From: a virus
Length of the DNA: 64,000 bases
Strand: one strand, 5' to 3'
IMG/VR virus record: IMGVR_UViG_3300020438_002794
Span: 1 to 64,000 of that record
Positions 5,649-51,168 of the stretch are shown piece by piece; the first letter of the stretch is position 1; each line of letters begins with the position of its first letter. Both the position numbers and the translations under genes were made by a program. The notes beneath the pieces are model-generated. The model was not told the origin of the DNA and did not search any database. It saw only the letters and a program-made list of their open reading frames with translations.

Positions 5649-5650
5649 GA

Positions 5651-5662: not shown

Positions 5663-7144
5663 ATGAGTATCACCTTAGTAGCAAGCCCCCGAACTTCTAA
5701 CTCCATGCCTAGTCCTGCACTAGCGGCACTAAAGCCCTGTGTGGAAAATGCAGGTTTTAATTGTTACACAATAGATCTCAACATAGAATTTTACAATGAC
5801 TTAAAAGAACATTACAGTGTATACGGAGAAATAGATAATTATTTTCAAACAGACTTTCGTTATCTAAGTCAAGACATCTTAGACTTAGAACCTCTTACAA
5901 AAATGAAATATTCACTTAGTGATGATGCACTTGAACTTTATCAACAACATCTTAATAAATGGGCAGACCACATACTCAACCAAGACAACGAATGGATTGG
6001 TATTAGTTTGTTAAGTGTAAACAGTGTATTATATACTATTGACCTTACAGAAGTTCTTAAAGATAAATCTCCCGATTGTAAAATTGTACTAGGCGGTCCT
6101 GGTGTAAGCACATTCGGTATTATGGGAGCAAGTAACTTAGGTGAATTTATGATAGTTACTGGACTTGCAAATAGATATCTAACGGGAGAGGGAGAATATA
6201 GTTTAGTAGAATTATTAGATGGTAAAGAGAATACTGAACAAGAACAAATAGACAATTTAGATGTTTTACCTTTTCCAGACTACAGTGACTTTGACTTTAC
6301 AAAGTATGGGTCTCAACATAATGCAGTAGCAGTTACAGGGTCAAGAGGATGTGTTCGTAGTTGCACGTTTTGTGATATAAGAAGTGCATGGAAAAAATAT
6401 AGGTATAGAAGTGGTACAAGTATAGCAAATGAAATAATAAACCATCATCAAAAGTTCGGTAGTACAGAATTTAAATTTACTGACAGTTTGGTCAATGGTA
6501 GTTTAAAAGCATTTGAAGAGTTTCTTGATGCTATAATACTTGCTAAAAAACAAGGCTTGTTTACTAAAGATATAAAATGGAGTGGGCAGTTTATATGTAG
6601 ACCAATAAATCAATTCAAAGAAGAATGGTTTGAAAAGATGAGTCTTGCAGGTGCAAACATGTTACAGATAGGTGTAGAAAGCGGTAGTGAAGCTGTAATG
6701 CACAACATGGGTAAAAAATTAAGTAACGATGATATTGACTTTACCATTAGCATGTTAACCAAATATAAGATACAATGTGATTTATTAATGATAGTAGGTT
6801 ATCCAACTGAAACTGACGAAGACTTTGATATGACTCTTGACCTATTAGAAAGGTTAAGTCCTTATAGTGAACAAGGATGTATTGAAGGAATAAACTTAGG
6901 CAAGACAATGGTTGTATTACCAGGTAGTCCTGTAGGAGAAAATATGGCTCATTGGGGTATAGAATATGATGATAACAACAATTGGATCAGTACACTCAAC
7001 CCTGGACTAACATTTAAACAACGTGTAAAGCGTAGAGTACTGGCACAAGAAAAGTGCCAAGAACTAGGCTATATGATTAGATGGCCTTTAACCACACTAA
7101 GAACACTTAGTGAAAATCTAAAACTCAACAAAGAAACAGCTTAA
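5663..7144 (+). CDS. cobalamin-binding-domain radical SAM protein (class B methyltransferase-like)
   Basis: N-terminal B12-binding-like motifs (PSPALAALK, GISLL, IVLGGP, GEGE); SRGCVRSCTFCD; GVESGS; IVGYPTET. Confidence 0.88.
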   Translation: MSITLVASPRTSNSMPSPALAALKPCVENAGFNCYTIDLNIEFYNDLKEHYSVYGEIDNYFQTDFRYLSQDILDLEPLTKMKYSLSDDALELYQQHLNKWADHILNQDNEWIGISLLSVNSVLYTIDLTEVLKDKSPDCKIVLGGPGVSTFGIMGASNLGEFMIVTGLANRYLTGEGEYSLVELLDGKENTEQEQIDNLDVLPFPDYSDFDFTKYGSQHNAVAVTGSRGCVRSCTFCDIRSAWKKYRYRSGTSIANEIINHHQKFGSTEFKFTDSLVNGSLKAFEEFLDAIILAKKQGLFTKDIKWSGQFICRPINQFKEEWFEKMSLAGANMLQIGVESGSEAVMHNMGKKLSNDDIDFTISMLTKYKIQCDLLMIVGYPTETDEDFDMTLDLLERLSPYSEQGCIEGINLGKTMVVLPGSPVGENMAHWGIEYDDNNNWISTLNPGLTFKQRVKRRVLAQEKCQELGYMIRWPLTTLRTLSENLKLNKETA

Positions 7145-7145
7145 A

Positions 7146-7826
7146 ATGGAAATGATAAACATACTTGAGTCAGAAGATCGTACTCAACACATAGAAAACT
7201 TAAAACAAATTTGTGAATGGATAGAGCAAAACGAACGTCATCGAAATGCGAAAAACTATTACAAATTAGATCAAACAGTAAAAAAGTTTGATAGTTTTGA
7301 AATTATATACGATGACAAAAATATTGTAGCATTTAGTGGACTTTGGAACAACAAAAGTTATCCTAGTAATATGGCTCGTTGTTGTACAAGGACATATTAT
7401 CACCCAGACTATAGGAACAGTGGAATAACTCGTTGGGGAGACAGTACTAGAAAAGCCAACTATGTGGAAGATTGGTTTACGCCAGTTCAGGTTGCTAAAG
7501 CAAAAGAACTTGGATATGAATATGCTTTTATCACTATCGAATTACGGTTGCGTAGACGTAGTATGCAAAGTCTAGTGCAATCATTGAATAACTCAGAGTA
7601 TAATAAAAACATTTGGAGTATTCATAATGATATGTGTAACACTTGTAGACAACACAACGATGAAGGACACTATATAGGTGTAAACTCAGATATTGCTTGT
7701 TGGCAAAATATATGTTATACGTCACTCACTGACAATCCAAGTACATTTGATTTGCCAAATATGAGTATCGACGAGTACAACACAGTGTATGGTAGTGAAC
7801 AAAAAGAAAGACTTAAACTAGTTTAA
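7146..7826 (+). CDS. GNAT-fold acyltransferase-like protein
   Basis: IVAFSG...RTYYHPDYRNSG resembles GNAT motif A; AKELGYEYAFIT resembles motif B. Confidence 0.5.
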   Translation: MEMINILESEDRTQHIENLKQICEWIEQNERHRNAKNYYKLDQTVKKFDSFEIIYDDKNIVAFSGLWNNKSYPSNMARCCTRTYYHPDYRNSGITRWGDSTRKANYVEDWFTPVQVAKAKELGYEYAFITIELRLRRRSMQSLVQSLNNSEYNKNIWSIHNDMCNTCRQHNDEGHYIGVNSDIACWQNICYTSLTDNPSTFDLPNMSIDEYNTVYGSEQKERLKLV

Positions 7827-8546
7827 CCATTGTGTAAACAATTTTTCTGTGTACAGTCTACTACGAATATTGTATTGTAATGTAATACCTCGTTCAAATT
7901 CTAAATGCATCCAGCTTTCGTCCCAAGGTACATCTAGTTTTTGATTTCTTAAACACATAATATGTGGTACAGTTTTACACTGTCTAGGATTTAAAAAACC
8001 ATGATATCCATCTACAACGTGTAAGTTACATTCTACATATTTTTTAAAACGCTCTGCTTGATCTAACGGTGTCCAGTCATCATCTCTGCCTGTTACAATA
8101 GTAATATCTTTACCTTGAAGCATGTTTGATGTTATTGCGATTAATGGTGGATAAACACAAAATGTCTTGTCGAAATGTTTACTACAACTTAGAGCCGCTG
8201 TAGCGCCAGCACTTATACCAAATACCAAACGTGTATCAGTTTCGTAGTCAGCAAGTACATCTAATATATCCTGTGCCCTATCTTCAAAAGTAGGGTTCCA
8301 ATTTTCTTCAGACATATCTCTTTCATCCCACAGTTGATACTCCAATCCTCTGTGAGTATAATGATCCATTAATGCACACTCATAACCATTTGCACAGGCT
8401 ATTTTAGCAAAGTCTAAATCTACATCACTCACCCCACCGCTTCCATGACTTAGTACTAATAGTGGAAGTCTCGATTTATTGAATCTATCATTTTTATCTG
8501 GACTTAGGTGTATATATTTGTTTCTTGCTTCTATTTTATCAAACAT
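7818..8546 (-). CDS. alpha/beta hydrolase, dienelactone hydrolase-like
   Basis: HGSGG, nucleophile elbow GISAG, GRDDDW acid, HGF His. Confidence 0.85.
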   Translation of the reverse strand: MFDKIEARNKYIHLSPDKNDRFNKSRLPLLVLSHGSGGVSDVDLDFAKIACANGYECALMDHYTHRGLEYQLWDERDMSEENWNPTFEDRAQDILDVLADYETDTRLVFGISAGATAALSCSKHFDKTFCVYPPLIAITSNMLQGKDITIVTGRDDDWTPLDQAERFKKYVECNLHVVDGYHGFLNPRQCKTVPHIMCLRNQKLDVPWDESWMHLEFERGITLQYNIRSRLYTEKLFTQWLN

Positions 8547-8995
8547 TTCATTTCATCTATTAATTGTAATTGTATAAGGTATTGATCTATGTTTCCAACA
8601 AACTCTTTACTTTTTTGTTTATTATCTTTTAGTGCTAGATTGTACATACGCTTCAGCCAGACACGCTTGCTTATATCATCAGTTCTATCATTTATAAACC
8701 TAAAAAATAAATCAACACTTCTATAAAACTTAGTGTTTTCTAGTTCCTGATGATTGCCAAACACATTAACTTTTAAGCAGTTAAAACTAAATTTATAAAT
8801 GGTTGAATCTTCATGAGTAAATTCTAACTGCCAACCGTTGTCATAACGTTGTCGACTTTTATCTGTAAAATCACACACAGTTGGGTCATTGAATCTTGCT
8901 TGCACACATGCATTTATAAGCTCATTTAAAATACGAGTTTGATCAAACCCTGTTAAGTTATGTTTGACCTGTGGCCAATTATCAAATGTTATCAT
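8531..8995 (-). CDS. hypothetical protein
   Basis: 154 aa ORF overlapping both neighbours. Confidence 0.7.
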   Translation of the reverse strand: MITFDNWPQVKHNLTGFDQTRILNELINACVQARFNDPTVCDFTDKSRQRYDNGWQLEFTHEDSTIYKFSFNCLKVNVFGNHQELENTKFYRSVDLFFRFINDRTDDISKRVWLKRMYNLALKDNKQKSKEFVGNIDQYLIQLQLIDEMKCLIK

Positions 8996-9513
8996 AGTCC
9001 ACTAATAACCAGATGTATCCTGTCTTCTCTGCTAGCATTTACTGCTGAGTGATATTCTTCTGTATTCATATAATAGCACATGCCGTTGTTTGGTATATGA
9101 TAATGTCCATGATCTCTATAGAGTATAAAACAATTTTCATTAGTTATTATTGCAAAATGATAACGAACCATACCTGGATCATTGTGCATCCACATTGCTT
9201 TTTTTGGAAGCATTTTCATTAATCGCATTCTGCCAATGGTGTGGGGGAAGTTTTCAAATATATATTCAAATACTGTGCCTTTAAAGTTAGGATTAAATTC
9301 TGTAAAGTCACGTTCCTCTAAACCATACATAGGACAATGGTCTAGTCTACTGTCTCCAGTTCCTTGATAAGGATCAGGTGGACTGTCTTTTGTATTTTGA
9401 AAGCATATTTGATTTTGCTTGTTAAAAGGATACATTTCAATTATACGATTTGTATCGTCAACTAATTGTTTATGGTCCACACTAAAATCTGTTGCTCGAA
9501 TTAATTCTGTCAT
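8992..9513 (-). CDS. aspartyl/asparaginyl beta-hydroxylase-like 2OG-Fe(II) oxygenase
   Basis: RMRLM...HND (HxD)...RYHFAIITN...HSAVN...RIHLV. Confidence 0.8.
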   Translation of the reverse strand: MTELIRATDFSVDHKQLVDDTNRIIEMYPFNKQNQICFQNTKDSPPDPYQGTGDSRLDHCPMYGLEERDFTEFNPNFKGTVFEYIFENFPHTIGRMRLMKMLPKKAMWMHNDPGMVRYHFAIITNENCFILYRDHGHYHIPNNGMCYYMNTEEYHSAVNASREDRIHLVISGL

Positions 9514-9521
9514 TTTATTTC

Positions 9522-10340
9522 CTATATAGTATATTTGTAATCAAATATATCGTCATCTGCCATCCACTCATATACTTGTTCTAAGTTATTTACAAGATTT
9601 CCTTTGTGTCCTTGTTTGTATTTTATCTTCTTATAAGTATCAACCGGTTGTGAGTCAAACCCCAACAGTGGAAGTATCTGTTCAACATCATGTTGCCAAT
9701 CTTCATAATGTATAACATTTTGTATTTGTCCACGCTGTTTAAAGTGTTCAAATAAACGATTTGTTTTTTTCAATGCTTGCACATAAAAATCGTAAATCTG
9801 GTAGTTTATATCAAATGATTCAACATCTACAGTCTGATCCTCAAAACCAATGTGCATAATGTTTGTATGCTTGCTTACCAAATTACTTAATATCTGTTCT
9901 CTTATATCTCGTCTTGCACAGAAAATAAAACTATATCCATCAAGCAAACTAGTATCTTCAAAATATTTCAAAAACGTTTCTGTTTGTATTTTAAAAAAAC
10001 TTTTGTCTTGGTTAGTAACATTTTGTCTAAGCAACTGACTTCTTTTTTTAACTTCTTTTAAGTATCTTTCAGTACCTATTTCGAACGGCTTAGGATTATT
10101 GAGGATAAAGGTACGCTGTACGGATCCATCTATTTGGTCATATGTTTTTATATATGTTCCGTCAGGTAATGGCAGTTTATAAGGTACATTTATATCTTTT
10201 CCGTTTTCGTCATATCTCATCAGATTTTCAGATATACTAGTAATCTCTCCAATATAGTCTTTGTTATGGGCTTGTGCTAAACATTGACCAACAACTGTAC
10301 TGCCGGTTCGATTAAAACTGAGTATTGCAAGTGTTTTCAT
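9522..10340 (-). CDS. sulfotransferase-like protein (Stf0-type)
   Basis: 5'-PSB loop SFNRTGST, 3'-PB RRDIREQILS, IHYED. Confidence 0.75.
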   Translation of the reverse strand: MKTLAILSFNRTGSTVVGQCLAQAHNKDYIGEITSISENLMRYDENGKDINVPYKLPLPDGTYIKTYDQIDGSVQRTFILNNPKPFEIGTERYLKEVKKRSQLLRQNVTNQDKSFFKIQTETFLKYFEDTSLLDGYSFIFCARRDIREQILSNLVSKHTNIMHIGFEDQTVDVESFDINYQIYDFYVQALKKTNRLFEHFKQRGQIQNVIHYEDWQHDVEQILPLLGFDSQPVDTYKKIKYKQGHKGNLVNNLEQVYEWMADDDIFDYKYTI

Positions 10341-11458
10341 ACCTTTCTCTTAGGTATTTTACTATCAGCACTACTAACGCAACTAGGACTAATACAAGGC
10401 ATAGGCTGATCAAATAACTTAAATCCTGTCTCGATGTTGCCAAGAGGAACATCATAGCAACTGTAGCTACGTTTGATACTTCCGTCAGGTTCTCTAATGA
10501 TAATACCTTGATAGCCTGCATTGCAACTCCAGCCTTTAAACTTGTTAAAGTTAAATGCATTAAATCTCTCCGCTTGATCCATGTACCATTTTTTGCCTTT
10601 ACTATCTTGAAATTCAATTTGCATGTGCCAAGGTACACTAGCATCATTTTCGCCTATTGTGTAAGGCGGCAGTTCGAAACTAGGCCTTGGACGAGCATTC
10701 CACTTGCGTTTTGACTCTGTATACGCCATTTGCGGCATACCGTTCCACAATCGCTGTAGCATTTCGTCTGTATAACCGTCCACGACTCTACTTGCCGTTG
10801 GGTCCGATTGAGGTTTGAGGGTAACGTTGATTCCTTGGTTGTGGAAGAATAGGGCATTATCCCAATCTTTCTCAAACCAGTCTGGAACCATAACCATGTT
10901 GATTGTAATTTGTACATCATGTTCCTGACAGAAGATGAGTTTGTCGGCAAACTCTTGCATCTTCTCCTTTGTATTTAAGTGTTCTGTATGTAGGCTAGCT
11001 GTGATACTAGCTCTATGAAATGGCTTTGCATACTCGACATATTTCTCAAACCATTTCATATTGCGACTACAATTTGAGGTCATATGGATACTAGTATAAT
11101 TGGTATTAGGCACATCATTAGCAAGGTGTAAGAGGATTTCCAAATAGCCAGGATGAAAAGTAGGCTCACCGCCAGATAAGCTAAAATGAAAACTATTAAA
11201 TCCATTGTCTCGTGCCTGCCTTTTTATCTCATCGATTGTATGAATACAGAGCTGTGTGGGCCTGTGATCTTTGCGATCTGATCGGGCGTATGGCCAACAA
11301 TAACTGCACTTATAGTTGCAAAAGCGACCAAGAAGCCAACTAACAGTAAACAAATCTCTGTATAGTAGCGTCCTTTGTCCGACCGAAACCAAGTCATCAA
11401 ACGGTATTTTTGTAAAGTCATAATCACTCCACTTTAAATCTTCATTGGATTGTGCCAT
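10337..11458 (-). CDS. radical SAM protein with C-terminal twitch-like Cys module (type B)
   Basis: CNYKCSYC, SGGEPT, TSN, SLHTE; C-terminal FKGWSCNAG...SC...CISPSCVSSAD. Confidence 0.92.
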   Translation of the reverse strand: MAQSNEDLKWSDYDFTKIPFDDLVSVGQRTLLYRDLFTVSWLLGRFCNYKCSYCWPYARSDRKDHRPTQLCIHTIDEIKRQARDNGFNSFHFSLSGGEPTFHPGYLEILLHLANDVPNTNYTSIHMTSNCSRNMKWFEKYVEYAKPFHRASITASLHTEHLNTKEKMQEFADKLIFCQEHDVQITINMVMVPDWFEKDWDNALFFHNQGINVTLKPQSDPTASRVVDGYTDEMLQRLWNGMPQMAYTESKRKWNARPRPSFELPPYTIGENDASVPWHMQIEFQDSKGKKWYMDQAERFNAFNFNKFKGWSCNAGYQGIIIREPDGSIKRSYSCYDVPLGNIETGFKLFDQPMPCISPSCVSSADSKIPKRKV

Positions 11459-11612
11459 CTAATCGTTTCTCTAGGTATTCGATAACTGCTGGATAAAGAT
11501 CATTAGGCTTTTCTGCATGTAGCTCACGCACCGCATTCAGTTCATGTTCTAAGAATTCTCTAACAGTCCAACTTTCATAATCGCTGTTGGTTGCATGTAC
11601 TTTAAATTCCAT
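11442..11612 (-). CDS. small hypothetical protein (56 aa, not in ORF track)
   Basis: Manual translation MEFKVHATNSDYESWTVREFLEHELNAVRELHAEKPNDLYPAVIEYLEKRLDGTIQ; overlaps both neighbours. Confidence 0.65.
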   Translation of the reverse strand: MEFKVHATNSDYESWTVREFLEHELNAVRELHAEKPNDLYPAVIEYLEKRLDGTIQ

Positions 11613-12150
11613 TTCTTACTTTCTCCGTAAAAATTTCTGCGCCATTGGCTACATTAGTAGTCCAGTCGTCCATAGCGTTTTCATCTGCCATATCACTAAT
11701 ATACTTAAAACTTCTAAATTTAATATTATATTCTCTGGCTACATAAGCCAATGCCCAACCTTCCATATCCACACAATCTATATTTTGTTGTTCAAACCAT
11801 GGGTCAGGTTCCATAACAAAACTATCACCTGTACCACAACGTATACCTTGTCCTGATGTTTGTATTTCACCTAACAATGGTTCAGTAAACGGAATACTAC
11901 CTCTGGGTGCTTGTGGCTCCGCCATCATATCACGCTGTAAAAATGAACCAACTTCATGTAGTCCACTAATACCACTTACACCACCTGCAGTACCGTAATT
12001 CCAAATTTCAACTGGTTTATAAACGTGACATAAACTTTTTGCAAGTGCAGTAGCCGCTTGTACTTTGCCTACTCCAGTATATATTACTGTGTATCCATTC
12101 ATTTTAAAATCAGGTAGTTCAGCTTCTAGAGCTACACATATTGTTATCAT
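11602..12150 (-). CDS. mtnN: 5'-methylthioadenosine/S-adenosylhomocysteine nucleosidase (MTAN/Pfs family)
   Basis: VALEAE, GVGKVQAA, NYGTAGG, TGDSF, VDMEG, KYISDMAD. Confidence 0.85.
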   Translation of the reverse strand: MITICVALEAELPDFKMNGYTVIYTGVGKVQAATALAKSLCHVYKPVEIWNYGTAGGVSGISGLHEVGSFLQRDMMAEPQAPRGSIPFTEPLLGEIQTSGQGIRCGTGDSFVMEPDPWFEQQNIDCVDMEGWALAYVAREYNIKFRSFKYISDMADENAMDDWTTNVANGAEIFTEKVRNGI

Positions 12151-12695
12151 TGTTGCCTCGCCTGCATTGGATCAATGCTTATCTCATTTATATTAACATC
12201 TTTTGGCTGTTCTATCAACCACTTTACATATCTAGCGGCTTGATCAATACTCATACATACCCTGTCAGGGTGCTTGTGTTGATTGTTGCTGAGTGTACCA
12301 AAACTTATGTAGCTGGTCTTTGGTCCGCTGTGCCATACTCCTAATAAAGATAAGCTATTGCTGTAGTCACGCAATGCTTTCTTTTCAGCATTATACAACC
12401 AAGCTGATCCTTTCTTAGTTCTATCAGTAGTTGAGCCAATACATACAATATGTGCTTCGCTTTTGGCTGTTCTAAGCGCCTTGTATACTATATCCAGTAG
12501 GACAGTTTGATGAAAGCGCCATAATGCACTGTTTATTATAATTATGTCATGTTTAGTACATTCGTTTGCAAATGTAAACATATGATCTGTTTTAGTTAAA
12601 TCGTATCCTGATTCTCTGCTACAAAAAACAGCATTTGGATACAGTTTATGTAATGCTTGTGCAACACCTTCTTTGGGATTACCTGTTATAATCAT
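12147..12695 (-). CDS. short-chain dehydrogenase/reductase, compact
   Basis: ITGNPKEGVA (variant TGxxxGxG), IINSA, IGS, YNAEK (YxxxK), VNINEI. Confidence 0.75.
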   Translation of the reverse strand: MIITGNPKEGVAQALHKLYPNAVFCSRESGYDLTKTDHMFTFANECTKHDIIIINSALWRFHQTVLLDIVYKALRTAKSEAHIVCIGSTTDRTKKGSAWLYNAEKKALRDYSNSLSLLGVWHSGPKTSYISFGTLSNNQHKHPDRVCMSIDQAARYVKWLIEQPKDVNINEISIDPMQARQQ

Positions 12696-22228: not shown

Positions 22229-22240
22229 ATATGTATTTAA
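22229..22240 (-). promoter_or_regulatory. late promoter-like TTAAATA directly before ATG
   Basis: Minus strand TTAAATA-CATAT-ATG(22228) in the only intergenic gap inside the tandem array; no SD. Confidence 0.55.
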
Positions 22241-22243
22241 CTA

Positions 22244-23326: not shown

Positions 23327-23543
23327 CTAATATTAGTTTCACATCCTTACCAGGACCTGTTTTGCTGGGCAGGTCTCCGTATGTATTTACATACCATTCG
23401 ATAACTGCACGGTACCATAGTTGACTGTTATGATGTGCTTGTTGATTGAATTGATGAATATTATTGTTGGTTGCCGCCATTGCACTCAATGCCCTAGCAC
23501 TTTCTATTTGTAGATCCCTAAGTTTCAGATCGTCTAGATTCAT
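23319..23543 (-). CDS. small hypothetical protein heading the radical SAM array
   Basis: 74 aa, overlaps both neighbours. Confidence 0.7.
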   Translation of the reverse strand: MNLDDLKLRDLQIESARALSAMAATNNNIHQFNQQAHHNSQLWYRAVIEWYVNTYGDLPSKTGPGKDVKLILDV

Positions 23544-43411: not shown

Positions 43412-44411
43412 CTACTTTTCCCTCGGTAAGTTTATAGCCGCTAACTTGATTAAAGTCTGGATCTGGAACTATATCAAAACTTCCAACTTTTAACATTCCC
43501 CAGGTTAGCATATCAAATTTGTTACGAGTATCAGTCTTTTTAATTTTATAACCACCCCAGTAGTTGTCTAAACTATAATTTAAATGATCTACTGCTTCTT
43601 CATGTGTTCTTGGATCGCCACACCAAAACATTAGTTGACTGGTGTAACAGCAACATTGTTCTAGTAAATCAAAACTACTACTGGTCATTTTGATAGCATT
43701 GTATTTGTCATCATCATACATTTCGATCATCACGTTATCATAATCGTACCCTATTTGTGTAGGATATAAAAATATCTCGCCTGGATTTCGTTCCATACTA
43801 AAACGATCAACCCATTCATCTTCTAAATAATGAAACTGTTCACCAAACTTCAATCCAAAATTTTGTAGATTTGTTTCTTGTGTAACAGTTGTTGTTACGT
43901 CTCTTAATACTTTGAGTGAATGGAAAATATCAACCAACTTTTCAATATGTCTCGTAAGTCCTTGGTCATTTAGAACACGATAGATTAGTATACATTGTGT
44001 TTGCATAGGATTAAGTATATCCTGGTGTACTATTAGCCCCCATTGGTGATCTATTTTTCCAGCATCCATTTTATACCATTCTTGTAATGGAATAAACTTT
44101 TGCAAAGTATTATCAATCTTAGTAAATGCTTGTCCACTACTCATTACGGTGTGTCCTAGTATGTCACTCAACGGTATGTTGTCAGTTTTGTATGCATCTG
44201 CAATTTCATTCCATTCTTCTATTTTATCATTGAGAGCAGGAATGATTTCGTATAATCTTTCTAATGCTTGATGAACCAGATACACATTCCAATGTGTTAT
44301 ATATGGTTTACCGATAATATCTAACTCCAACTCAAACCAGTCTGCAAAGATATCGCATTTGATTAGTTGTTTTTCTTTTTTATCGTTTTGTAATTCAAGC
44401 TCAAACTTCAT
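43398..44411 (-). CDS. hypothetical protein
   Basis: Long ORF between radical SAM genes; ATG 44411 with GGAG SD; no family recognised. Confidence 0.75.
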   Translation of the reverse strand: MKFELELQNDKKEKQLIKCDIFADWFELELDIIGKPYITHWNVYLVHQALERLYEIIPALNDKIEEWNEIADAYKTDNIPLSDILGHTVMSSGQAFTKIDNTLQKFIPLQEWYKMDAGKIDHQWGLIVHQDILNPMQTQCILIYRVLNDQGLTRHIEKLVDIFHSLKVLRDVTTTVTQETNLQNFGLKFGEQFHYLEDEWVDRFSMERNPGEIFLYPTQIGYDYDNVMIEMYDDDKYNAIKMTSSSFDLLEQCCCYTSQLMFWCGDPRTHEEAVDHLNYSLDNYWGGYKIKKTDTRNKFDMLTWGMLKVGSFDIVPDPDFNQVSGYKLTEGKVDAVG

Positions 44412-45699
44412 ACTTGCTCCATAGTTTATAAAGCTCTGCAAAGTCAGAATTGAAGTCTGTTTTACGCATTGTATCTATACTGCGAATATATTTGTTGAGG
44501 GCGGGCCACTTGTCGCTCCAATCCTCGCTATTCATAAAGTTTGTCATATTCTTTAATTCTTGCACTTTATTCTTTTCTGGGTATTTCAGCATGAAGTTAT
44601 CAATTTTTTCTGTTATAATTTGTTTCATTTCCTTAGGTAATACTTTAGCACACATGTACTGTGGATAGTGTAACACGCCAGGATGAAACATTCCTTGGTG
44701 ATCATGTATTCCAATTTTTTTATAGTTTTGATCAAACAAAAACTGTGCAAAGTCTGGCAAATACCAAATGTTTAATGCACTTACAGTACACAATACTTTA
44801 CCAACAATATGGTCAGCCGCGTTTTCTACTTTGTCCAGTGTTTCGTGTACAGTTTTCCAATTAGTTGGATAGCGTAACCATTTGTTCATTTCGCCTATGC
44901 CATCTATACTAAGCATAAGTTCTACAAACTTAAAGTGACCCCAAAGTTCTAATATATCATCTGGCATAATAGTACCATTGGTATGATAGCGTAGTTCTAT
45001 ATGTTCAGCATGTCCACTTTCGACACATTTCTTTAAGAAACGTCTGTGGTTCTTTAAATATAAAGGCTCGCCGCCTGCAAATATAAAGTGACGCATTCCG
45101 GCTAACAATGGATCTATCTCTTGTTCCCAAAACTCATCATCAGCGGCCCAGTCATATTTGTTGTTGCAATGGTCTTGTATTTTCCAATCCCAGTCACCTT
45201 TTACTTCAGGATTGTCGTGACTTAGATCTCTAATCTTTTCTGCATCTTTGACCCATTTACTAGAGTCAGTTGGTCTACACATAACACATTGTACATTACA
45301 AGTATTACCTAACCGTAAATCTAATGTAATAACATCTTGATCCAAACTGCCATCTTCGTTAGTGCTGGCTATTAGTTCGTCAACATATTCTCTTGTTAAT
45401 TTCTTTACCCATAGATTGTTTTCATTCATTCTATGACTACGAATACCTGCCGCTTCTTCTTTCCAGCAATGCATACATGCTTTTAGTGCTTTGCCGTTGA
45501 GCATATCTTTTCTAGCATTTTTCCAATAGTAACTGTTCCATACTGCATTTATATCAGCATTGTTTAAGTTAATACGTTGGTCTTGTGTAGGCTGAGCTAG
45601 ACAGCAAAGCAAAGCTGTGCCGTCTGTATAAGTTGCCATGTGCATCCATGGAAGAATACAAAATTTCTTTCCATAGTCTTCCAAAAAATCTTGTGCCAT
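44401..45699 (-). CDS. radical SAM protein, type A
   Basis: CILPW..LCC..CMHC; LDLRLGNTCNVQCVMC; AGGEPL; HTNG; SIDG. Confidence 0.93.
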   Translation of the reverse strand: MAQDFLEDYGKKFCILPWMHMATYTDGTALLCCLAQPTQDQRINLNNADINAVWNSYYWKNARKDMLNGKALKACMHCWKEEAAGIRSHRMNENNLWVKKLTREYVDELIASTNEDGSLDQDVITLDLRLGNTCNVQCVMCRPTDSSKWVKDAEKIRDLSHDNPEVKGDWDWKIQDHCNNKYDWAADDEFWEQEIDPLLAGMRHFIFAGGEPLYLKNHRRFLKKCVESGHAEHIELRYHTNGTIMPDDILELWGHFKFVELMLSIDGIGEMNKWLRYPTNWKTVHETLDKVENAADHIVGKVLCTVSALNIWYLPDFAQFLFDQNYKKIGIHDHQGMFHPGVLHYPQYMCAKVLPKEMKQIITEKIDNFMLKYPEKNKVQELKNMTNFMNSEDWSDKWPALNKYIRSIDTMRKTDFNSDFAELYKLWSKYEV

Positions 45700-47051
45700 T
45701 ATTCTACCAACTTTCTAACATTTTGATACAAGTCATCATCAACAATACTAAAGTTGGTATTACGCTGTCTGTCCCATACTTCTGTCATCTTCACAAAGTC
45801 TTGTAATTGTTCTTTCCAATTATCTAACTGTGGTTGTTCCAAATATCCTACGATACCATCTACACTATTCTTAATTAACCAGTTCTTCTCATATAATATA
45901 TTACACTGTTCTTTAAATTCAAGCAATCTATTTTTTGCATTCTGTCTCATTTCAACAGGAAGATTTCTCACATCTAAATACGGAGGATGTGTATTAATTA
46001 ATATGTCAACACCAATACTTTTCCATTCTATTTCTGGCTTTCCTGCATAAAATTCTTCGCCTAACTCGTGTGCAAGCCATAGTATTTCGTGTATTCGATT
46101 TATGTTGTAGATTTGTAGTACAGGACTTATATTGCTAGAAACGTTTGGTAAACTTAATATGCTTCTATAGTTTCTAAGTATAATGTCCCAACTCTTAGTG
46201 CCTCGTATAAATTCATTTACAACGCCTACACCATCTAAACTAGCATTGATGTCTACACTTTCAAATTTACCAATACTATCCAAAAACTTTTGATTAGCAT
46301 TTGTACAGTTGGTATTCATAAACACATTAATATGTTTACTATGACCTTGTTCAGCGGCATAGTTTAAAAACTGCATGTTGTTTTGAATCATAGTTGGCTC
46401 ACCACCTGTCATGTAAACTTTTCTTAGTTTAGGCATCCATTCGTATATGTCTTTCCAAAAATCATCAGCATCAAACTTTTCTCTGTATTCTTTGCTGTTG
46501 ATCCAGTCTGGACGTTTGCCGTATGTTTTCTCTTGTATTCTGGTATAGTCCTCTTCAACATCTGTGAGCTTGGCATCTTCTTTAGCAATAGTACTACTGT
46601 TAAAACTGTTGCACATTCTACAACTAAGATTACACAAGTTACCCAAACGCAGGTCCAAGTAAAGAGGATCGTGTTCTGGTAATGCAAAGTCATTATTATA
46701 GCTTGCTTCAATGCGTTCATGAATAGCTTCTTCGCCTATACGGCGTTCCCATTCCTCATTGTGCATTTGTCTGAAACTTTTTTTACCTACTTCTTCTTGC
46801 AGGTAACAGTGTTTACAACTACTAACTTGTTCTCCTTGAATCATAGTCATGCGTATATCACGCATGTCTTTATCATTCCATGCTTGCTTTAGTGTTGTAC
46901 TATTGATATCTAAAATTTTGCCATCATCGCCACGTAGTACACTGGGTTTGGCAATACAGCAAAAGTCAATACTTCCACTGGTATTCACCATCATGCTTAA
47001 CCAAGGGTAAACACAAAATGTTTCCCCGTACAATTCATCCCAGTCTGCCAT
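45699..47051 (-). CDS. radical SAM protein, type A
   Basis: CVYPW..FCC..CKHC; LDLRLGNLCNLSCRMC; TGGEPT; SLDG. Confidence 0.93.
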   Translation of the reverse strand: MADWDELYGETFCVYPWLSMMVNTSGSIDFCCIAKPSVLRGDDGKILDINSTTLKQAWNDKDMRDIRMTMIQGEQVSSCKHCYLQEEVGKKSFRQMHNEEWERRIGEEAIHERIEASYNNDFALPEHDPLYLDLRLGNLCNLSCRMCNSFNSSTIAKEDAKLTDVEEDYTRIQEKTYGKRPDWINSKEYREKFDADDFWKDIYEWMPKLRKVYMTGGEPTMIQNNMQFLNYAAEQGHSKHINVFMNTNCTNANQKFLDSIGKFESVDINASLDGVGVVNEFIRGTKSWDIILRNYRSILSLPNVSSNISPVLQIYNINRIHEILWLAHELGEEFYAGKPEIEWKSIGVDILINTHPPYLDVRNLPVEMRQNAKNRLLEFKEQCNILYEKNWLIKNSVDGIVGYLEQPQLDNWKEQLQDFVKMTEVWDRQRNTNFSIVDDDLYQNVRKLVE

Positions 47052-47053
47052 GC

Positions 47054-48031
47054 TTACTCAATACTATCATCGACTTGATCTTCTCTTACCATAGCACCTA
47101 GTCTGTGTGGATTTTTATAAACAGTTTTAAAGAATCTACTTCCGATATGATCCATATCTGTAATTTCAAAATCTAACACACTCCTAAGTTCGTCACCTAG
47201 TTCTATAGTTTTAGCTTTGAGTTTATTCCAATCCCAACTTACACCAGTATTCACGCACATTTCTTTGCCGCCTTCAAATTGAGGGAACAGTTCTTCATTA
47301 AACATTTTGCTTAACCAATCAAAGTCTCTCACATTACGCCAATCCCATTTGCGTCTTTCTATGTTAGTCATGTGACAACCTAATCTAGCACCATATATTG
47401 CCCATAAACCATTTGTAGCATCTTCACCTACTGTCATCCACACCAACAGTCTTTTATAGTTCTCGTAATGTATTCTTTTGATATCAGCAGGATCAACTAC
47501 ATCACCGCCTTCTAATCCCATTTTTACACCTTCACGGAAACCTGCTCTCCATGCCTGTAGTGGGCTACCATTATTAGCTACATCACAATAAACATTGTTC
47601 ATCTGTATATAACGTATATTCCAACAAAAGTCAACTTGTGCCGCTTTGTCACTTTCAGGAGCCGCTTCATGTGTACGCATTTTATTAACAACGTCTACGG
47701 GCCAGCACTTAATACCGCCATTTCCATATACCAATCCGTTTACTGCATTTTTTCCTGCCCAGCTAATTACATCAGTCGGAGTAACTCTATCCATGTTTAG
47801 TTCAGCATTAAAAAATTCTTCTCTTACAATATTATCTGCATCAATTGTAATAAATCTATCCGTTTCAGCTATTGCCGCGGCGGCTTTGTGTGCGGCATCA
47901 CTACCCCATACTCCGTGACTGCGTTTTGCCCACGGACATTTATCTTGTAAGTCTGCCCAATTTTGTTCTGCGTTAGGCTCGTCATAGCTGATATATATTA
48001 TATCGAACTCTGTAACTGGCGTTAGTGTCAT
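47054..48031 (-). CDS. GT-A fold glycosyltransferase-like protein
   Basis: ISYDEP, AHKAAA, TIDAD (DxD), NAVNGLVYGNGGIK, AWRAGFREG; paralog of 24555-25259. Confidence 0.65.
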   Translation of the reverse strand: MTLTPVTEFDIIYISYDEPNAEQNWADLQDKCPWAKRSHGVWGSDAAHKAAAAIAETDRFITIDADNIVREEFFNAELNMDRVTPTDVISWAGKNAVNGLVYGNGGIKCWPVDVVNKMRTHEAAPESDKAAQVDFCWNIRYIQMNNVYCDVANNGSPLQAWRAGFREGVKMGLEGGDVVDPADIKRIHYENYKRLLVWMTVGEDATNGLWAIYGARLGCHMTNIERRKWDWRNVRDFDWLSKMFNEELFPQFEGGKEMCVNTGVSWDWNKLKAKTIELGDELRSVLDFEITDMDHIGSRFFKTVYKNPHRLGAMVREDQVDDSIE

Positions 48032-48034
48032 AGT

Positions 48035-49042
48035 TTACTCCGGTTGGTTAATGTAGTCGAATGTTAAGTCAACATTACTTTCTCTGCATAAAATTCCACA
48101 TTTAGTTAAGTCTAAACCTGGGGTTGGTATTTCTAAAGTTCTATCCCATCCTATGCTATTTAATGGAAGAACAATATGATCTAGTAACTGACTTGGATTA
48201 CGTGGATCTGTTATATACAGTCCTATATCAGTATATATTTTACTGTCCTGTGGATTTTGGAAATTACTTTTAATTTGTGTGACATCGCCTTTCTTAATTA
48301 TTGTAAAGTCTGTTGCAACGTCTTGAGTTGGTTGAGTAGGTTTAGCAAATGATCTTCTCCTACTGTATCTTGTTCTATAATCTATTCCTGTGAAGTTTGC
48401 TTTTCTCTGTAGTCTATAACTTTGAAATATTTTCTTAGTCATAACACTCATTTCTCCTAGCCCACATATTCTTCGCAATGGCGCCATATCGAAAATCATA
48501 TAACCTTCTTCGATCAGTTCTCCAGGATCAATCTCAATAGTTTTTACTAGAAAGTTTGGATCATTGTCTTTAATTAAAAAAAGTGTAATCGGATCGTATA
48601 CTCCGTCTTGTTCAGGATTCAAACTTATATTTCTAAAAAAACGTTTACCTGTCATTCTATACAGTGTGTCTTGATTAAAGTTTACTTCCATTTTCCAACT
48701 GTTGATGTACAGTATAATATTGATATCAGCTTTAGTTTTTTGATTAAGTGGAACTACACTTAATCGTCTCTCAGCTTCTTTGATTCTCAAAACTGCTGAC
48801 TTCTCAACTAGTTTTAGTTCATGATTAACATCGACTACTGCAAATTTTTTAGGGTCAACATGACCCATTAGTATTTGTCTAGCGTCATCACTATCTGTTA
48901 CAATAAAAGGATTTTTTATTTGATCCTTTTCTCTATTTGTAACCGTGACTACATCACCATTTTCGTCGTCATAATAAACACACCATTTAGGTGCAGGTTT
49001 ATCGCTCTTGTAATCTCTGAGTAAGGTTGGTTCTGAAGACAT
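48035..49042 (-). CDS. hypothetical protein
   Basis: 335 aa; partial internal duplication (LFLIKDNDPNFL / LYITDPRNPSQL). Confidence 0.75.
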   Translation of the reverse strand: MSSEPTLLRDYKSDKPAPKWCVYYDDENGDVVTVTNREKDQIKNPFIVTDSDDARQILMGHVDPKKFAVVDVNHELKLVEKSAVLRIKEAERRLSVVPLNQKTKADINIILYINSWKMEVNFNQDTLYRMTGKRFFRNISLNPEQDGVYDPITLFLIKDNDPNFLVKTIEIDPGELIEEGYMIFDMAPLRRICGLGEMSVMTKKIFQSYRLQRKANFTGIDYRTRYSRRRSFAKPTQPTQDVATDFTIIKKGDVTQIKSNFQNPQDSKIYTDIGLYITDPRNPSQLLDHIVLPLNSIGWDRTLEIPTPGLDLTKCGILCRESNVDLTFDYINQPE

Positions 49043-49913
49043 CTACTATTTCATCTGTTAAAAACGTTTCATCACTATAATGAATAATTCCACTGCTGAT
49101 AACGCTATTTTCTATTTGTATTTTCTTATTATTAGTTACCCAATAGTTTAACATATCAGTCCAGTTACCCGGAGCTTCTTCTGGATTGTTAAACACACCA
49201 TGTGATAATGTATGTAAGTCATAATGATTACTAAGTTTTACACCAATGTCGTCTGTGTGATCAACAAAGTGTGTAATTACATTACCTAAAACATTTTTTT
49301 GAAAATACTCTGGTTTCTTATTTGGAAACACATGATTGTATACGTCTCTCCAGTTTTGCAATACAGGGTCAGCCATTTTAAACCATTCTGCAACTGTTTC
49401 ATCTTTTTTATCAAAATACATCAAGTTATAAAAATATTTAGGTAACTTGTATTGTATTTCGTATTCGAATCGATTAACTCTTGGAATAGGAAAGTTTCTA
49501 TAAGCAAGTGCGTCATTCGGAACACTAATGCCGTTCTTAGATGACATTACCGCCCAAAGATCATTTATATCAACATTTACAAATAGTGTATCATAATCAA
49601 CATATATTGTTTCTTCGTAAGGAGTTGCGTGATAAACTTGCCATAAGTTCATGCCATGAAATCCGTCTTTGTGAGCACTGTTTCCGTATGGTAATTCTAT
49701 CATATAGTCAAAAGCATGTTCATAAAAACTTTGAACATTACCTAATTGACCTTTATCTACAATCAGTGTAATACTTGCATCTGGGTCGCATACTTTTATA
49801 CTACATGCAAGTGCATAACAATATCGAATATTGTCTTCGCCTGTATTAATACCTAAGGTTACAAAACCTCTATTAGGTGCATCATTGTTTTCAATTTCAA
49901 TTTCTTCAGACAC
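48999..49913 (-). CDS. GT-A glycosyltransferase-like protein (GT8 / mannosyltransferase-like)
   Basis: ALACSIK, TLIVD, TPYEETIYVDYD (DxD), LMYFDK, IHY. Confidence 0.7.
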   Translation of the reverse strand: MSEEIEIENNDAPNRGFVTLGINTGEDNIRYCYALACSIKVCDPDASITLIVDKGQLGNVQSFYEHAFDYMIELPYGNSAHKDGFHGMNLWQVYHATPYEETIYVDYDTLFVNVDINDLWAVMSSKNGISVPNDALAYRNFPIPRVNRFEYEIQYKLPKYFYNLMYFDKKDETVAEWFKMADPVLQNWRDVYNHVFPNKKPEYFQKNVLGNVITHFVDHTDDIGVKLSNHYDLHTLSHGVFNNPEEAPGNWTDMLNYWVTNNKKIQIENSVISSGIIHYSDETFLTDEIVDVFRTNLTQRLQER

Positions 49914-50817
49914 TGGTTTCTTCTTTCGCTAAATTTAACAAAGTTTGATAGTGCCTATCTAATGCACGTTTGTTCATAATATGTAAGTTTTGATCTGTAT
50001 GTCTACACAATATATTTTTCCATTGCTCTGCTCTATTGTGTTTTAAAAACACAACATCATTCAATCCATTTACTTGTGCAATATCATCTTTTTGATCCAT
50101 GTTTAGCAACGGCTGTCCCATAAAATCATGTATAAAGTCATCATTGTTCATACCATTCATTAGGTGTGTTGCAATGCTAACACAAAAGTCTGTTCTAAAT
50201 AACATTTTAGGAAATTGGTAAAGCAGGCTATAATATTCCCAATTCTCTTTTACATGAGCCCATATATCAAAAAATAACTTGCTTTCTTCACTTTGATCAA
50301 AATAAACTATTGTACTCCACCAATGATGTATTCCTGCTTCATTCAAAGTAATTTCGTTTGTGTAAGGCATTTCTCCACCCACATACTGTGCGTATCTATG
50401 CATTGCAATAGGTAAATCAGTTTCAAAAATATAATTGTAAAAGTCGTTCATTAACAAATAGTCAGTGTCTAGTAACAGTGTACGCTCGTAAGGCGTATGA
50501 TTGAAAACTGTGTGTTTGTTACTATTCCAAAAAGGTGCATTAAATTCACTCCACGGACTATCCATGTGCCTTCTTATATTAGTTCTCTTTTCTGTTACAC
50601 TACCGTCGATAACAACGTTATCAAATGAATCATTGACTAAACCTTTATCATGGCTTTGATTCATCCATTCCATTGTGCCTTCGTCAGTAATAAGTGTAAC
50701 AGGCATGTTTAGTTGCTTTTTTGCATAATGCGATGCTAGTATAGCAAACTTAGCATAATCTAGTTCTTCATTGTTATAGCAAAATAAACAAATGCCATTT
50801 CCTTGTTTTTCTGACAT
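49906..50817 (-). CDS. GT-A glycosyltransferase-like protein, paralog of 48999-49913
   Basis: TLITD, TPYERTLLLDTD (DxD), WSTIVYF, FRTDF, LHIMNK. Confidence 0.7.
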   Translation of the reverse strand: MSEKQGNGICLFCYNNEELDYAKFAILASHYAKKQLNMPVTLITDEGTMEWMNQSHDKGLVNDSFDNVVIDGSVTEKRTNIRRHMDSPWSEFNAPFWNSNKHTVFNHTPYERTLLLDTDYLLMNDFYNYIFETDLPIAMHRYAQYVGGEMPYTNEITLNEAGIHHWWSTIVYFDQSEESKLFFDIWAHVKENWEYYSLLYQFPKMLFRTDFCVSIATHLMNGMNNDDFIHDFMGQPLLNMDQKDDIAQVNGLNDVVFLKHNRAEQWKNILCRHTDQNLHIMNKRALDRHYQTLLNLAKEETSV

Positions 50818-50820
50818 TCA

Positions 50821-51168
50821 CTACCAATCCATTAAACTTTTAATATTTCGAGCTTTCTTAATTTTTTCTGCTTGTACTTTGTAGGCATTACTTGCCTCGG
50901 TATACGCACTTACCATTGTTTCTAAAAATTCACTAAGATTATCTATTAATATTGGATTCTCTTTGGTGTCTATTAGAATAGCTTCTTTCCTGTCCATATC
51001 AAGTAAAGTCTTTACGAAGCTAATGGTAACTGCATCAGCGAAAAATACGCCCTTTGCATAATGCACGGTTTGCAAAACTTGAGTTCGTTGTTTTAGAGTG
51101 CGTTTTTGATTACCTAATGTAATTCGATAATTTGCAAACTCTAACGCTTTTTCGAGTCTCTCGTCCAT
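50821..51168 (-). CDS. hypothetical protein, first gene of the enzyme island
   Basis: 115 aa, AAGGAG SD, promoter upstream. Confidence 0.8.
   Translation of the reverse strand: MDERLEKALEFANYRITLGNQKRTLKQRTQVLQTVHYAKGVFFADAVTISFVKTLLDMDRKEAILIDTKENPILIDNLSEFLETMVSAYTEASNAYKVQAEKIKKARNIKSLMDW

Follow-up and report, generated by a model that had tools for sequence, protein, structure and literature searches.

The first 64 kb of the 87,129-bp IMG/VR record IMGVR_UViG_3300020438_002794, referred to here as the window, hold an island of genes for radical S-adenosylmethionine (SAM) enzymes and glycosyltransferase-like proteins that is joined to a phage structural operon. From the open reading frame (ORF) listing and a script, we counted 47 minus-strand ORFs filling positions 7818-51168 (43,351 bp)—45 of at least 80 amino acids and two gap-filling ORFs of 74 and 62 amino acids—in agreement with a first-pass annotation that had described about 49 co-oriented, overlapping genes over about 43 kb. 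The genes are tightly packed, with 39 of the 46 junctions overlapping or abutting and the largest gap measuring 153 nt. The 74-amino-acid ORF (23319-23543, between g27 and g26) and the 62-amino-acid ORF (30853-31041, between g33 and g32), both taken from the ORF list and both on the minus strand, fill the operon's only sizeable gaps, of about 200 nt each, and overlap the start and stop codons of their neighbors. The overlapping gene arrangement continues from the structural operon into the island, with no break between them and on the same strand, the two convergent plus-strand genes described earlier are present (5663-7144 and 7146-7826), and the GC content is even across the window (33-39%). 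Sixteen marine sequencing runs (virome or metagenome) hold a near-identical tandem array, and three of these runs are marked as possible sources of this DNA; a 4.8-kb contig from another study spans 5585-10403 with zero mismatches, indicating that the convergent distal end is real.

The structural genes identify the genome that carries this island. A PHROG search of the record located, upstream of the island and also on the minus strand, the baseplate-type genes for a gp5-like hub (70096-71505), gp25 (68805-69167) and gp6 (65233-68805; phrog_10646, 866 bits), and a whole-record ORF following gp6 encodes a giant structural protein of 3764 amino acids that occupies 53939-64000 of the window and runs to position 65233 of the record. 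Between the giant gene and the island lie three minus-strand genes for fibre-like or structural proteins, with no enzyme among them (g56-g58, 51233-53928; phrog_6427, phrog_19602, a tail fibre, and phrog_11259): the phrog_11259 protein g58 (53314-53928, 184 bits), the fibre-like g57 (52392-53303) and the fibre-like g56 (51233-52390). The last of these contains no Cys, 19% Ser+Thr and a YGYGSYGYGYGY stretch, and is a possible acceptor or cross-link site. Beyond the hub, PHROG recognized gp55, gp46/47 and the gp20 portal. The nearest portals are found in jumbo phages, namely Sinorhizobium Phosso and Pseudomonas PA5oct with 52-53% identity and Agrobacterium Atu_ph07 with 47.5%. Judged by these gene comparisons, the source is a fragment of an uncultured marine jumbo phage, lytic and of T4 type, and the phage origin assumed at first pass stands; at a CheckV completeness of 24%, the record implies a genome of about 360 kb. 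Neither the window nor the record's last 19 kb contains a tRNA gene.

The T4 late-promoter consensus TATAAATA has two matches in the window against about ten expected by chance and, being rarer than chance, carries little information on the timing of expression; one copy falls at 53936-53943, at the end of the giant gene and just ahead of g58. Two oligo-dT marine libraries contained short identical contigs scattered over 1-20 kb, yet such libraries may carry DNA, so these contigs are no proof of transcription.

Radical SAM enzymes and the transferase core

The CxxxCxxC motif occurs in 18 proteins (script), and a six-frame search of the whole record placed PF04055 matches at the same 18 places, 17 of them over the cut-off; the 18th protein scores 418 bits on NF033640, and no further PF04055 match was found in the record's remaining 23 kb. 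The 18 radical SAM enzymes originally proposed are thus confirmed. Nine of them (g18-g22, g24, g25, g49 and g50) score 234-419 bits on the NCBIfam model NF033640 (N_Twi_rSAM), whose whole-protein cut-off is 170 bits, while g38, with 70 bits, is a distant relative rather than a member. In the N_Twi arrangement, the twitch (half-SPASM) cysteine module stands ahead of the CxxxCxxC core and not behind it. In an alignment of the nine members with g38, eight of the ten proteins show a PF13186 match within residues 9-100 that precedes the PF04055 domain (residues about 114-322), while g18 and g19 have no PF13186 match; C9, C27 and C77 are invariant across the ten, and C28 and C80 nearly so. The N-terminal region aligns to the twitch domain of BtrN; for the core, the closest protein of known structure is 8vpo (E 2e-14), which catalyzes cyclopropane formation in a peptide (peptide cyclopropyl synthase).

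All N_Twi genes lie on the minus strand, namely five in tandem (g18-g22, 12679-18574; 234-396 bits on NF033640), followed by g24 and g25 (19530-22228; 297 and 419 bits) and, at the opposite end of the island, the pair g49 and g50 (44401-47051; 384 and 356 bits). Pairwise identity within g18-g22 is 21-31%, except for 49% between g19 and g20 (13829-16247), the only recent duplicates, in whose place a relative in the MAG (metagenome-assembled genome) MED685 has a single gene. The remaining enzymes fall into other classes. A second class, on the same strand, is formed by g15 (10337-11458; PF04055 53 bits), g23 (18556-19530; 47.5 bits, with BLASTP matches to g15 and g47) and g47 (42374-43411; 41.8 bits, also linked by BLASTP); a third is represented by g26 (22244-23326, minus strand; 35.6 bits), and the PDB sequence search gave no relative for g15 or g26. 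Within 33847-35869 (minus strand), g38 has its SPASM/twitch match at the N-terminus (PF13186 at residues 50-115, then PF04055) and g39 has a C-terminal SPASM domain (PF04055 55.6 bits; PF13186 at residues 191-258). In g41 (36866-38239, minus strand; PF04055 46.8 bits), the radical SAM domain is preceded by a faint MORN hint (PF02493, E 0.0013, 18.9 bits, below the 22.5-bit cut-off). Finally, the plus-strand gene g9 (5663-7144; PF04055 61 bits, PF02310 weak) encodes a B12-binding-type, methylase-like enzyme whose best NCBIfam matches are of the ApyD/PhpK type, all far below cut-offs.

The glycosyltransferase-like proteins form two families. For g51 (47054-48031, minus strand) and its paralogue g28 (24555-25259, minus strand; 37% identical), neither family models nor a PDB sequence search gave a match, and g51 was the GT-A candidate chosen for structure prediction. 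The AlphaFold model, built from an 11-sequence alignment (AF2 predicted local distance difference test [pLDDT] score 78.5), had top Foldseek matches that were all GT-A enzymes—PcManGT, RmlT, WrtF, TarS/TarP, PBCV-1 A64R and SunS—with E values of 2e-4 to 1e-3 and probabilities of 0.95-1.0. VIA gave Z scores of 8-10 over residues 2-233, the best match being B4GALNT1 (Z 9.9, root-mean-square deviation 3.0, 141 residues). The DxD residues D64 and D66 are invariant in g51, g28 and nine relatives. On this predicted structure, g51 is a GT-A-fold DxD transferase, and g28 would be a second one of the same kind. A second DxD family comprises g53 and g54 (48999-50817, minus strand), which are homologous to each other (hhalign 99.7%, E 1.7e-25) and keep invariant DxD pairs at D106/D108 in the g53 family and D117/D119 in the g54 family. 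Atlas scores of 0.95-0.97 connect g54 to NDP-sugar-transferase, Mannosyl_trans3 and GT8 clusters, providing an NDP-sugar-transferase/GT8-like lead; g54 had no PDB sequence match, and g53 gave nothing usable in Pfam at E<=5. A kinship between g53/g54 and g51/g28 was considered and dropped, as hhalign returned 0.9% and nothing in common beyond the DxD turn. Four of the five DxD glycosyltransferase-like proteins named at first pass are therefore supported (g51, g28, g53 and g54); the fifth, g30 (26354-27157, minus strand), has a weak nucleotide-diphospho-sugar transferase match (PF03407, 23.3 bits against a 22-bit cut-off).

Next to g28 lies g27 (23540-24571, minus strand), which had no PDB sequence match and was also modeled (AF2 pLDDT 79). 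Foldseek returned at least 500 matches at E<=0.001, and those listed are all methyltransferases or methyltransferase domains, apart from CntL, a nicotianamine synthase and one unnamed protein; CntL and nicotianamine synthase are SAM-dependent aminoalkyl transferases. The model assigns g27 a class I SAM-methyltransferase fold. A g28-like gene adjoins g27 in cells and in the Ralstonia phage RsoM2USA as well.

Relatives in other phages and in cells

To place the island in a wider context, we compared it with other viral contigs. Six relatives, of which five are IMG/VR contigs of different sample origin and the sixth is 108 kb long and was binned into a 'Gammaproteobacteria' MAG, keep gp6, the giant gene, g58, g57, g56 and g55 through to g49, with protein identities of 28-98% (about 25% for the giant protein in the two most distant). 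Their inner gene content varies, one contig (G005) lacking g32-g38 and g42. Since six independent contigs keep the junction with the structural genes, the island layout is no artefact; the possibility that the record is chimeric or cellular was rejected on the strength of these contigs, the T4-type core genes, the portal relatives and the occurrence of the array in 16 runs. More broadly, relatives of g51/g28 are encoded by at least 599 IMG/VR stretches. Among the best 80 of these loci, g53 or g54 is found in 75, the 115-amino-acid core gene g55 (50821-51168 here, minus strand; also present in RsoM2USA) in 69, the fibre-like g56-58 in 63 and g27 in 39. Within 10 kb, at least one radical SAM gene is present in 44 loci and none in 36, with a range of 0-10 per locus.

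These counts point to a core and a variable insert. On gene order, the core cassette is made up of the fibre genes, g55, g54, g53 and g51, then g28 and g27. The spread of 0-10 radical SAM genes per locus marks these as swappable extras, and the 36 loci with a transferase core and no radical SAM gene nearby indicate that they are not the core of the system. In the present island, about 35 genes are inserted between g51 and g28 and more are added beyond g26—by this comparison, the largest version found of a common, fibre-linked transferase cassette. A minimal version exists in RsoM2USA, a cultured Ralstonia jumbo phage of 344 kb, where ORF347-355 lie behind gp5-gp25-gp6-giant in the order fibre-like ORF355, g55, g54, g53, g51 (44% identical), one N_Twi gene, g28 (42%) and g27. 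This cassette differs from ours in having one radical SAM gene instead of 18 and in lacking donor-sugar and decoration genes. The giant ORF361 of RsoM2USA follows gp6 and is virion-confirmed, while the cassette ORFs are annotated as hypothetical and are not mentioned in the genome paper (PMC8504454). The first-pass annotation had proposed to ask whether relatives preserve the linkage to tail genes and differ in the genes they hold. Both are borne out by the six contigs, the 80 loci (63 of them with fibre-like genes) and RsoM2USA.

Close homologues of g21 were found on contigs of 343 kb and 236 kb. Island genes were additionally seen at 43-92% identity on contigs filed under the MAGs 'Gammaproteobacteria MED685', 'Crocinitomicaceae', 'Rickettsiales MED657' and 'Neisseriaceae', one of which, NZGL01000008.1, also holds fibre genes and the giant gene; these look like phage contigs binned into bacterial MAGs. 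A small parallel in a cultured phage is provided by Vibrio phage KVP40, with three scattered radical SAM genes at 135-153 kb. The N_Twi genes are matched by two of the three, at 23-26% identity (E 5e-12 and 7e-8); two genes away from one of this pair lies a match to the PF00534 glycosyltransferase family.

Cellular relatives were sought with an N_Twi pattern over one genome per prokaryote species, which found at least 302. The best 80, which we examined, are mostly from Bdellovibrionota MAGs, several on Mb-sized contigs, and usually occur in 2-8 copies per 21 kb. Among 118 neighboring proteins other than radical SAM enzymes, glycosyltransferases head the tally (Glycos_transf_2 9, GT1/GT4 3, Glyco_transf_7C 3 and WbsX 1), followed by NDP-hexose 2,3-dehydratase, carbamoyltransferase, PfkB kinases and PF05118 with two each, where family counts may overlap. 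Several Bdellovibrionales loci carry a whole run of island homologues, namely g27, g28, g25, g26, g15, a second g26-like gene, g17 and, further on, g9, with scores of up to 600 bits: about 600 bits for g25, 560 for g15, 350 for g26, 300 for g9 and, in five loci, 125 for g17. The g49 and g50 subfamilies are adjacent in several Bdellovibrionales loci too. The PDB sequence searches gave no match for two large neighbor proteins in Bdellovibrionales. Outside this group, the cultured Poseidonocella sedimentorum and Sphingomonas sp. 37zxx have one or two N_Twi genes each, that of P. sedimentorum lying close to a 2317-amino-acid ORF.

In a FastTree reconstruction, whose rows are the best hits of each paralogue, every phage N_Twi paralogue falls into a subfamily of its own with Bdellovibrionota sequences (local support 97-100). 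The g19/g20 pair is the only lineage-specific duplication, so that the nine phage members derive from eight old subfamilies. Separate Bdellovibrionota counterparts for each paralogue mean that the copies diverged long ago and are different enzymes; a recent amplification of one radical SAM gene within the phage was rejected on the same grounds, given paralogue identities of 20-31%. The matching gene sets indicate that whole sets of genes moved between phages and Bdellovibrionota.

Candidate donor-sugar and decoration genes, and the remaining genes

The genes inserted around the radical SAM enzymes, all on the minus strand unless stated otherwise, include several with a probable role in sugar metabolism. 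The NDP-sugar enzymes expected at first pass are present: g29 (25413-26366) is an epimerase/dehydratase of the short-chain dehydrogenase/reductase (SDR) type (PF01370, 142 bits), nearest in NCBIfam to dTDP-glucose 4,6-dehydratase (109 bits, below the cut-off), and g31 (27081-29420) is a Gfo/Idh/MocA oxidoreductase (PF01408, 38 bits) fused to a DesII-like radical SAM domain. The C-terminal 400 residues of g31 align to nearly the whole of DesII (8hzv, 250 bits), with a score on TIGR04426 below the DesII equivalog cut-off (352 versus 450 bits). A pyridoxal phosphate-dependent class I/II aminotransferase, g40 (35848-36948; PF00155, 96.5 bits), is HisC-like (TIGR01141, 135 bits, below the cut-off). 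Within 31041-31857 lie g33, a 130-amino-acid HxGH nucleotidyltransferase-like protein (PF01467, E 0.003), and g34, a P-loop kinase (PF13671, 33.6 bits) that is partly like adenosine 5'-phosphosulfate (APS) kinase (PF01583, 31 bits, residues 5-86 only). Because g34 covers only the first 90 positions of PF01583 and scores below the cut-offs of all NCBIfam APS-kinase models, and because g33 is a generic HxGH protein, the suggested supply of 3'-phosphoadenosine 5'-phosphosulfate (PAPS) was not confirmed.

Among the candidate decoration genes, g32 (29375-30856) encodes the predicted carbamoyltransferase, of the NodU/CmcH type, with both Pfam domains over their cut-offs (PF16861, 178 bits; PF02543, 136 bits) and a score below the NodU equivalog (146 versus 1000 bits). 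The paralogues g44 and g45 (40263-41833) are PAPS-type sulfotransferase-like: a profile of the two with their orthologues matches heparan sulfate 2-O- (E 7e-4) and 6-O-sulfotransferases (E 7e-3), and they keep invariant K14, G17, T18 and T19 (read as the 5'-PSB, PKxGTT-like) as well as R72, P74, R77 and S80 (read as the 3'-PB, RxPxxRxxS), while staying below the Pfam cut-offs (PF03567, 20.6 versus 22 bits; PF06990, 16.1 versus 27 bits). Of the four sulfotransferase-like proteins first listed, these two are supported, whereas g14 (9522-10340) shows a faint hint on an N-terminal P-loop-like stretch (PF13469, E 0.11) and g46 (41820-42377), with no Pfam match at E<=5, shows only an RDPxDR-like motif seen by eye. 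The count of three methyltransferases likewise changes in composition. An FkbM methyltransferase, g42 (PF05050, 38.5 bits), is clear; g43, with MORN repeats (PF02493, 27 bits), has a weak FtsJ-like match (PF01728, 17.7 bits, below the cut-off), both genes lying within 38196-40284; g27 is newly added by its fold, and g9 is a B12-type radical SAM protein. An Asp/Asn beta-hydroxylase-type oxygenase, g13 (within 7818-9513; PF05118, 37 bits, over the cut-off), completes this set. The nucleosidase expected to act on methylthioadenosine and S-adenosylhomocysteine, g16 (11602-12150), holds at family level (PF01048, 64 bits) and not at equivalog level, its best NCBIfam match being the nucleosidase PRK05634 (95.7 bits, below the 129-bit cut-off).

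The remaining genes offer fewer clues. These are g10 (7146-7826, plus strand), a putative member of the system with a faint GNAT hint (PF13508, E 0.17); g11, with a weak alpha/beta-hydrolase hint (PF12146, E 0.005), and g12, to which no family could be assigned, both within 7818-9513; g17 (12147-12695; 182 amino acids, no family match), kept in the cellular cassette; g48 (43398-44441), kept by synteny in all relatives compared; and g52 (48035-49042), with phrog_7768 at E 9e-4 only. Pfam searches at E<=5 returned nothing usable for g48 or g52. The three proteins taken at first pass as SGNH-like, g35-g37 (31817-33850), could not be confirmed as such, given no Pfam match even at E<=5 and only viral hypothetical clusters in the Atlas; g36 and g37 are paralogues (BLASTP E 1e-9). 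Across all island proteins, Pfam gave no match to a flippase, polymerase, priming transferase or transporter, nor to PqqD, the RRE domain or a peptidase. No strong hydrophobic segment (19 residues, Kyte-Doolittle >=1.6) was found in them, apart from a marginal one inside the twitch region of g38.

Ahead of the island, a plus-strand block (96-5648) encodes an AAA ATPase (96-1193), a 2-oxoglutarate-Fe(II) oxygenase (1257-1934), a DUF2201 metallopeptidase/VWA protein (1976-3328) and ThyX (4983-5648); inside the ThyX gene, at about 5.1-5.6 kb, independent assemblies break or diverge, with many strain variants. Outside the island, at 75148-75741 of the record, a cytidylyltransferase-like gene (phrog_395) adjoins that of the late sigma factor gp55 and could supply an activated donor.

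Interpretation and comparison with known systems

Taken together, the gene content, the folds and families, the synteny, the variability of the cassette and the absence of membrane parts describe a fibre-linked phage glycosyltransferase island with uncharacterised enzymology. We consider its chemistry to be probably sugar-directed, on account of the GT-A folds, the DesII-like fusion, the carbamoyltransferase, the glycan-type sulfotransferase motifs and the glycosyltransferases beside the cellular homologues. The reading we favor, with somewhat less than even confidence, is that of an expanded fibre-linked cassette that builds and radically edits a small glycan. In such a pathway, a soluble GT-A-type core (g54, g53, g51 and g28), together with the methyltransferase g27, would assemble a short glycan in the cytoplasm, attached to an acceptor that is itself soluble; donor sugars would be made or altered by the SDR, the DesII fusion, the aminotransferase, the nucleotidyltransferase-like protein and the kinase; and the carbamoyltransferase, the two sulfotransferase-like proteins, the methyltransferases and the hydroxylase would decorate the product. 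The roughly 16 radical SAM enzymes of the insert, belonging to four or five old and distinct classes, might each perform a different sugar edit—epimerisation, dehydration, oxidation, C-methylation or C-C bond formation being candidates. The by-product 5'-deoxyadenosine inhibits radical SAM enzymes, as established for Pfs with BioB, LipA and ThiH, and g16 may serve to clear it.

With no strong hydrophobic segment and no flippase, polymerase, priming transferase or transporter, all steps would take place in the cytoplasm and the phage would export no polymer of its own. The initial idea of a self-contained pathway, on the model of surface-polysaccharide systems of the Wzx/Wzy or ABC type, is accordingly not borne out, as the island lacks a membrane protein, a flippase, a polymerase, a priming transferase and a clear sugar-1-phosphate nucleotidyltransferase; what survives of it is the building of a glycan, where sugar-directed chemistry is the most plausible option, and the link to tail genes. 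Because phages that infect unrelated hosts consistently have the cassette beside late structural genes, we prefer as the acceptor one of the fibre or baseplate proteins, which would be produced late and at the same time as the enzymes. That the acceptor is a virion protein is nonetheless a tentative choice, which could readily prove wrong.

Several points weigh against this reading. The sugar substrate, the reaction of each radical SAM enzyme and the acceptor are deduced from genes. The fold matches of g51 are moderate (template modeling score about 0.3, Z about 10) and include nucleotidyltransferases, g40 is HisC-like rather than of the sugar (DegT) type, and no clear sugar-1-phosphate nucleotidyltransferase was found among the island proteins. 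The abundance of glycosyltransferases beside the cellular homologues is a raw tally with no matched control. To our knowledge, NF033640 has no characterised member, and SPASM/twitch radical SAM enzymes act more often on peptides than on other substrates. Moreover, the cassette might lie beside fibre genes simply because insertions accumulate at a hypervariable site there, an argument already made for pelagimyophages (PMC7029224).

Among the alternatives, remodeling of the host envelope is unlikely, and we regard it as the most serious contender. Here, the soluble enzymes would alter the host's lipid-linked O-antigen, capsule or S-layer precursors, with export left to the host's flippase and ligase, and the surface would change during infection, e.g., to block superinfection or to keep progeny from sticking to debris. 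This is the published interpretation of the glycosyltransferase-rich cluster of pelagimyophages, which also contains radical SAM cassettes (PMC7029224); the absence of membrane parts fits borrowed host export, and the Bdellovibrionota homologues are chromosomal (on Mb-sized contigs), where a cell-surface glycan would be a natural product. The island, however, includes no priming transferase or membrane-associated enzyme, its cassette is tied to late structural rather than early genes in a lytic T4-type phage, and the linkage to fibre genes holds across hosts as different as marine bacteria and Ralstonia. We consider it improbable that the radical SAM enzymes act instead on side chains of a virion protein or a small phage peptide, in the manner of ribosomally synthesised and post-translationally modified peptides, to yield cross-links, epimerised residues or C-methyl groups to which the transferases add only minor decorations. 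In favor of this view, most SPASM/twitch enzymes mature peptides, as does the cyclopropyl synthase 8vpo, the closest relative of known structure; proteusin pathways include PF05118 hydroxylases and B12 radical SAM methylases; and the island has two small ORFs and an adjoining fibre protein with a YG-repeat stretch. On the other hand, no RRE/PqqD domain, peptidase or transporter was found in the island proteins, and the twitch module occupies the N-terminus, the usual place of the RRE. The conserved partners have a glycosyltransferase fold, 36 of the 80 loci hold the core with no radical SAM gene within 10 kb, and the cellular context is sugar-related.

Two further possibilities fare less well. 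A cluster for a soluble glycoside or aminocyclitol-like metabolite, with steps like those of BtrN, AprD4 or DesII and a TobZ-like carbamoylation, strikes us as decidedly improbable. The DesII fusion, the Gfo/Idh/MocA domain, the carbamoyltransferase, the aminotransferase and the methyltransferases do resemble aminoglycoside and deoxysugar clusters, and a cyanophage paper calls similar genes 'antibiotic synthesis genes' (PMC12801897), but no scaffold-forming enzyme (such as 2-deoxy-scyllo-inosose synthase), exporter or resistance gene is present, and linkage to fibre genes in at least 63 of the 80 loci would be unexpected for a metabolite cluster. DNA hypermodification, in which an edited sugar would be carried by a modified phage base to evade restriction, is very improbable. 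T-even phages glycosylate hydroxymethylcytosine, and ThyX adjoins the island (4983-5648); against this stand the position in a structural operon and cellular homologues in chromosomal glycosyltransferase clusters. The searches of the 87-kb record also returned no base hydroxymethylase, no DNA-binding domain and no family of DNA glycosyltransferases, which is weak evidence of absence at 24% of the genome.

Building on the preferred reading of a fibre-linked glycan pathway, one could speculate that this phage lineage and predatory Bdellovibrionota share a cassette that glycosylates fibre-type adhesins and then rewrites the sugars with position-specific N_Twi enzymes during or after assembly. We hold this extension to be quite unlikely. 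Its starting point is that attachment to Gram-negative prey is a necessity for the phage lineage as much as for Bdellovibrionota. If true, the swapping of 0 to 18 radical SAM genes per phage would diversify a glycan with non-canonical sugars and with sulfate, carbamoyl and methyl groups, whose role would be to adjust adsorption or to protect the fibres, and radical glycan editing would represent both new enzymology and a new layer of host-range variation. Irrespective of this, the N_Twi family, to which nine of the island's enzymes belong, has thousands of environmental members and no known reaction, and thus offers much unexplored radical chemistry, whether its substrates are sugars or something else. 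The recurrence in at least 599 stretches, the fibre adjacency (63 of 80 loci) and the gain and loss of genes suggest that the cassette may quite generally govern how abundant giant phages of the sea adsorb, which hosts they infect or how they exclude superinfecting phages. Its counterparts on Bdellovibrionota chromosomes suggest that phages and predatory bacteria, both of which prey on bacteria, have exchanged genes. As a minimal cassette is present in the culturable RsoM2USA, the question is testable at the bench now.

We know of no glycan pathway with more than one or two radical SAM enzymes, as against the 18 encoded here. A literature search found no paper on an N-terminal-twitch radical SAM member and nothing that combines a jumbo phage, radical SAM and glycosyltransferases. 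The family NF033640 shares with nine island proteins the twitch-before-core order and yields their scores, and is only catalogued; what differs here is that nine members of eight old subfamilies stand in one operon. The DesII enzyme of desosamine biosynthesis (dTDP-4-amino-4,6-dideoxy-D-glucose ammonia-lyase) aligns nearly full-length with g31, yet g31 is fused to a Gfo/Idh/MocA domain, scores below the equivalog and has no DesI-type sugar aminotransferase nearby. Known systems of virion glycosylation—chlorovirus PBCV-1 with A64R, itself among the matches of g51, and the capsid or tail of mycobacteriophages—likewise employ soluble GT-A-type enzymes with no membrane partners; they have no radical SAM enzymes. 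Radical SAM islands in phages are already in print in two papers, both with no function assigned: Nishimura et al. 2017 (PMC5332604) reported a T4-like marine genome with 12 radical SAM genes, and Zaragoza-Solas et al. 2020 (PMC7029224) described a host recognition cluster, found in pelagimyophages and cyanomyophages, that includes radical SAM cassettes, neither proposing a reaction. The latter cluster, read as modifying the host O-chain (PMC7029224), comes closest to ours, being a big hypervariable region by a giant gene and tail fibres, rich in glycosyltransferases (GT8 being the commonest) and with radical SAM cassettes that come and go. The present island differs from it in belonging to a jumbo lineage (portal nearest Phosso, PA5oct and Atu_ph07) and in combining 18 radical SAM genes with genes for sulfo-, carbamoyl- and methyl-transfer. 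New here are the number of radical SAM genes (18 versus 12 in print), the core-plus-insert structure with its counts, the predicted folds of g51 and g27, the glycan-type sulfotransferase motifs and the absence of membrane parts.

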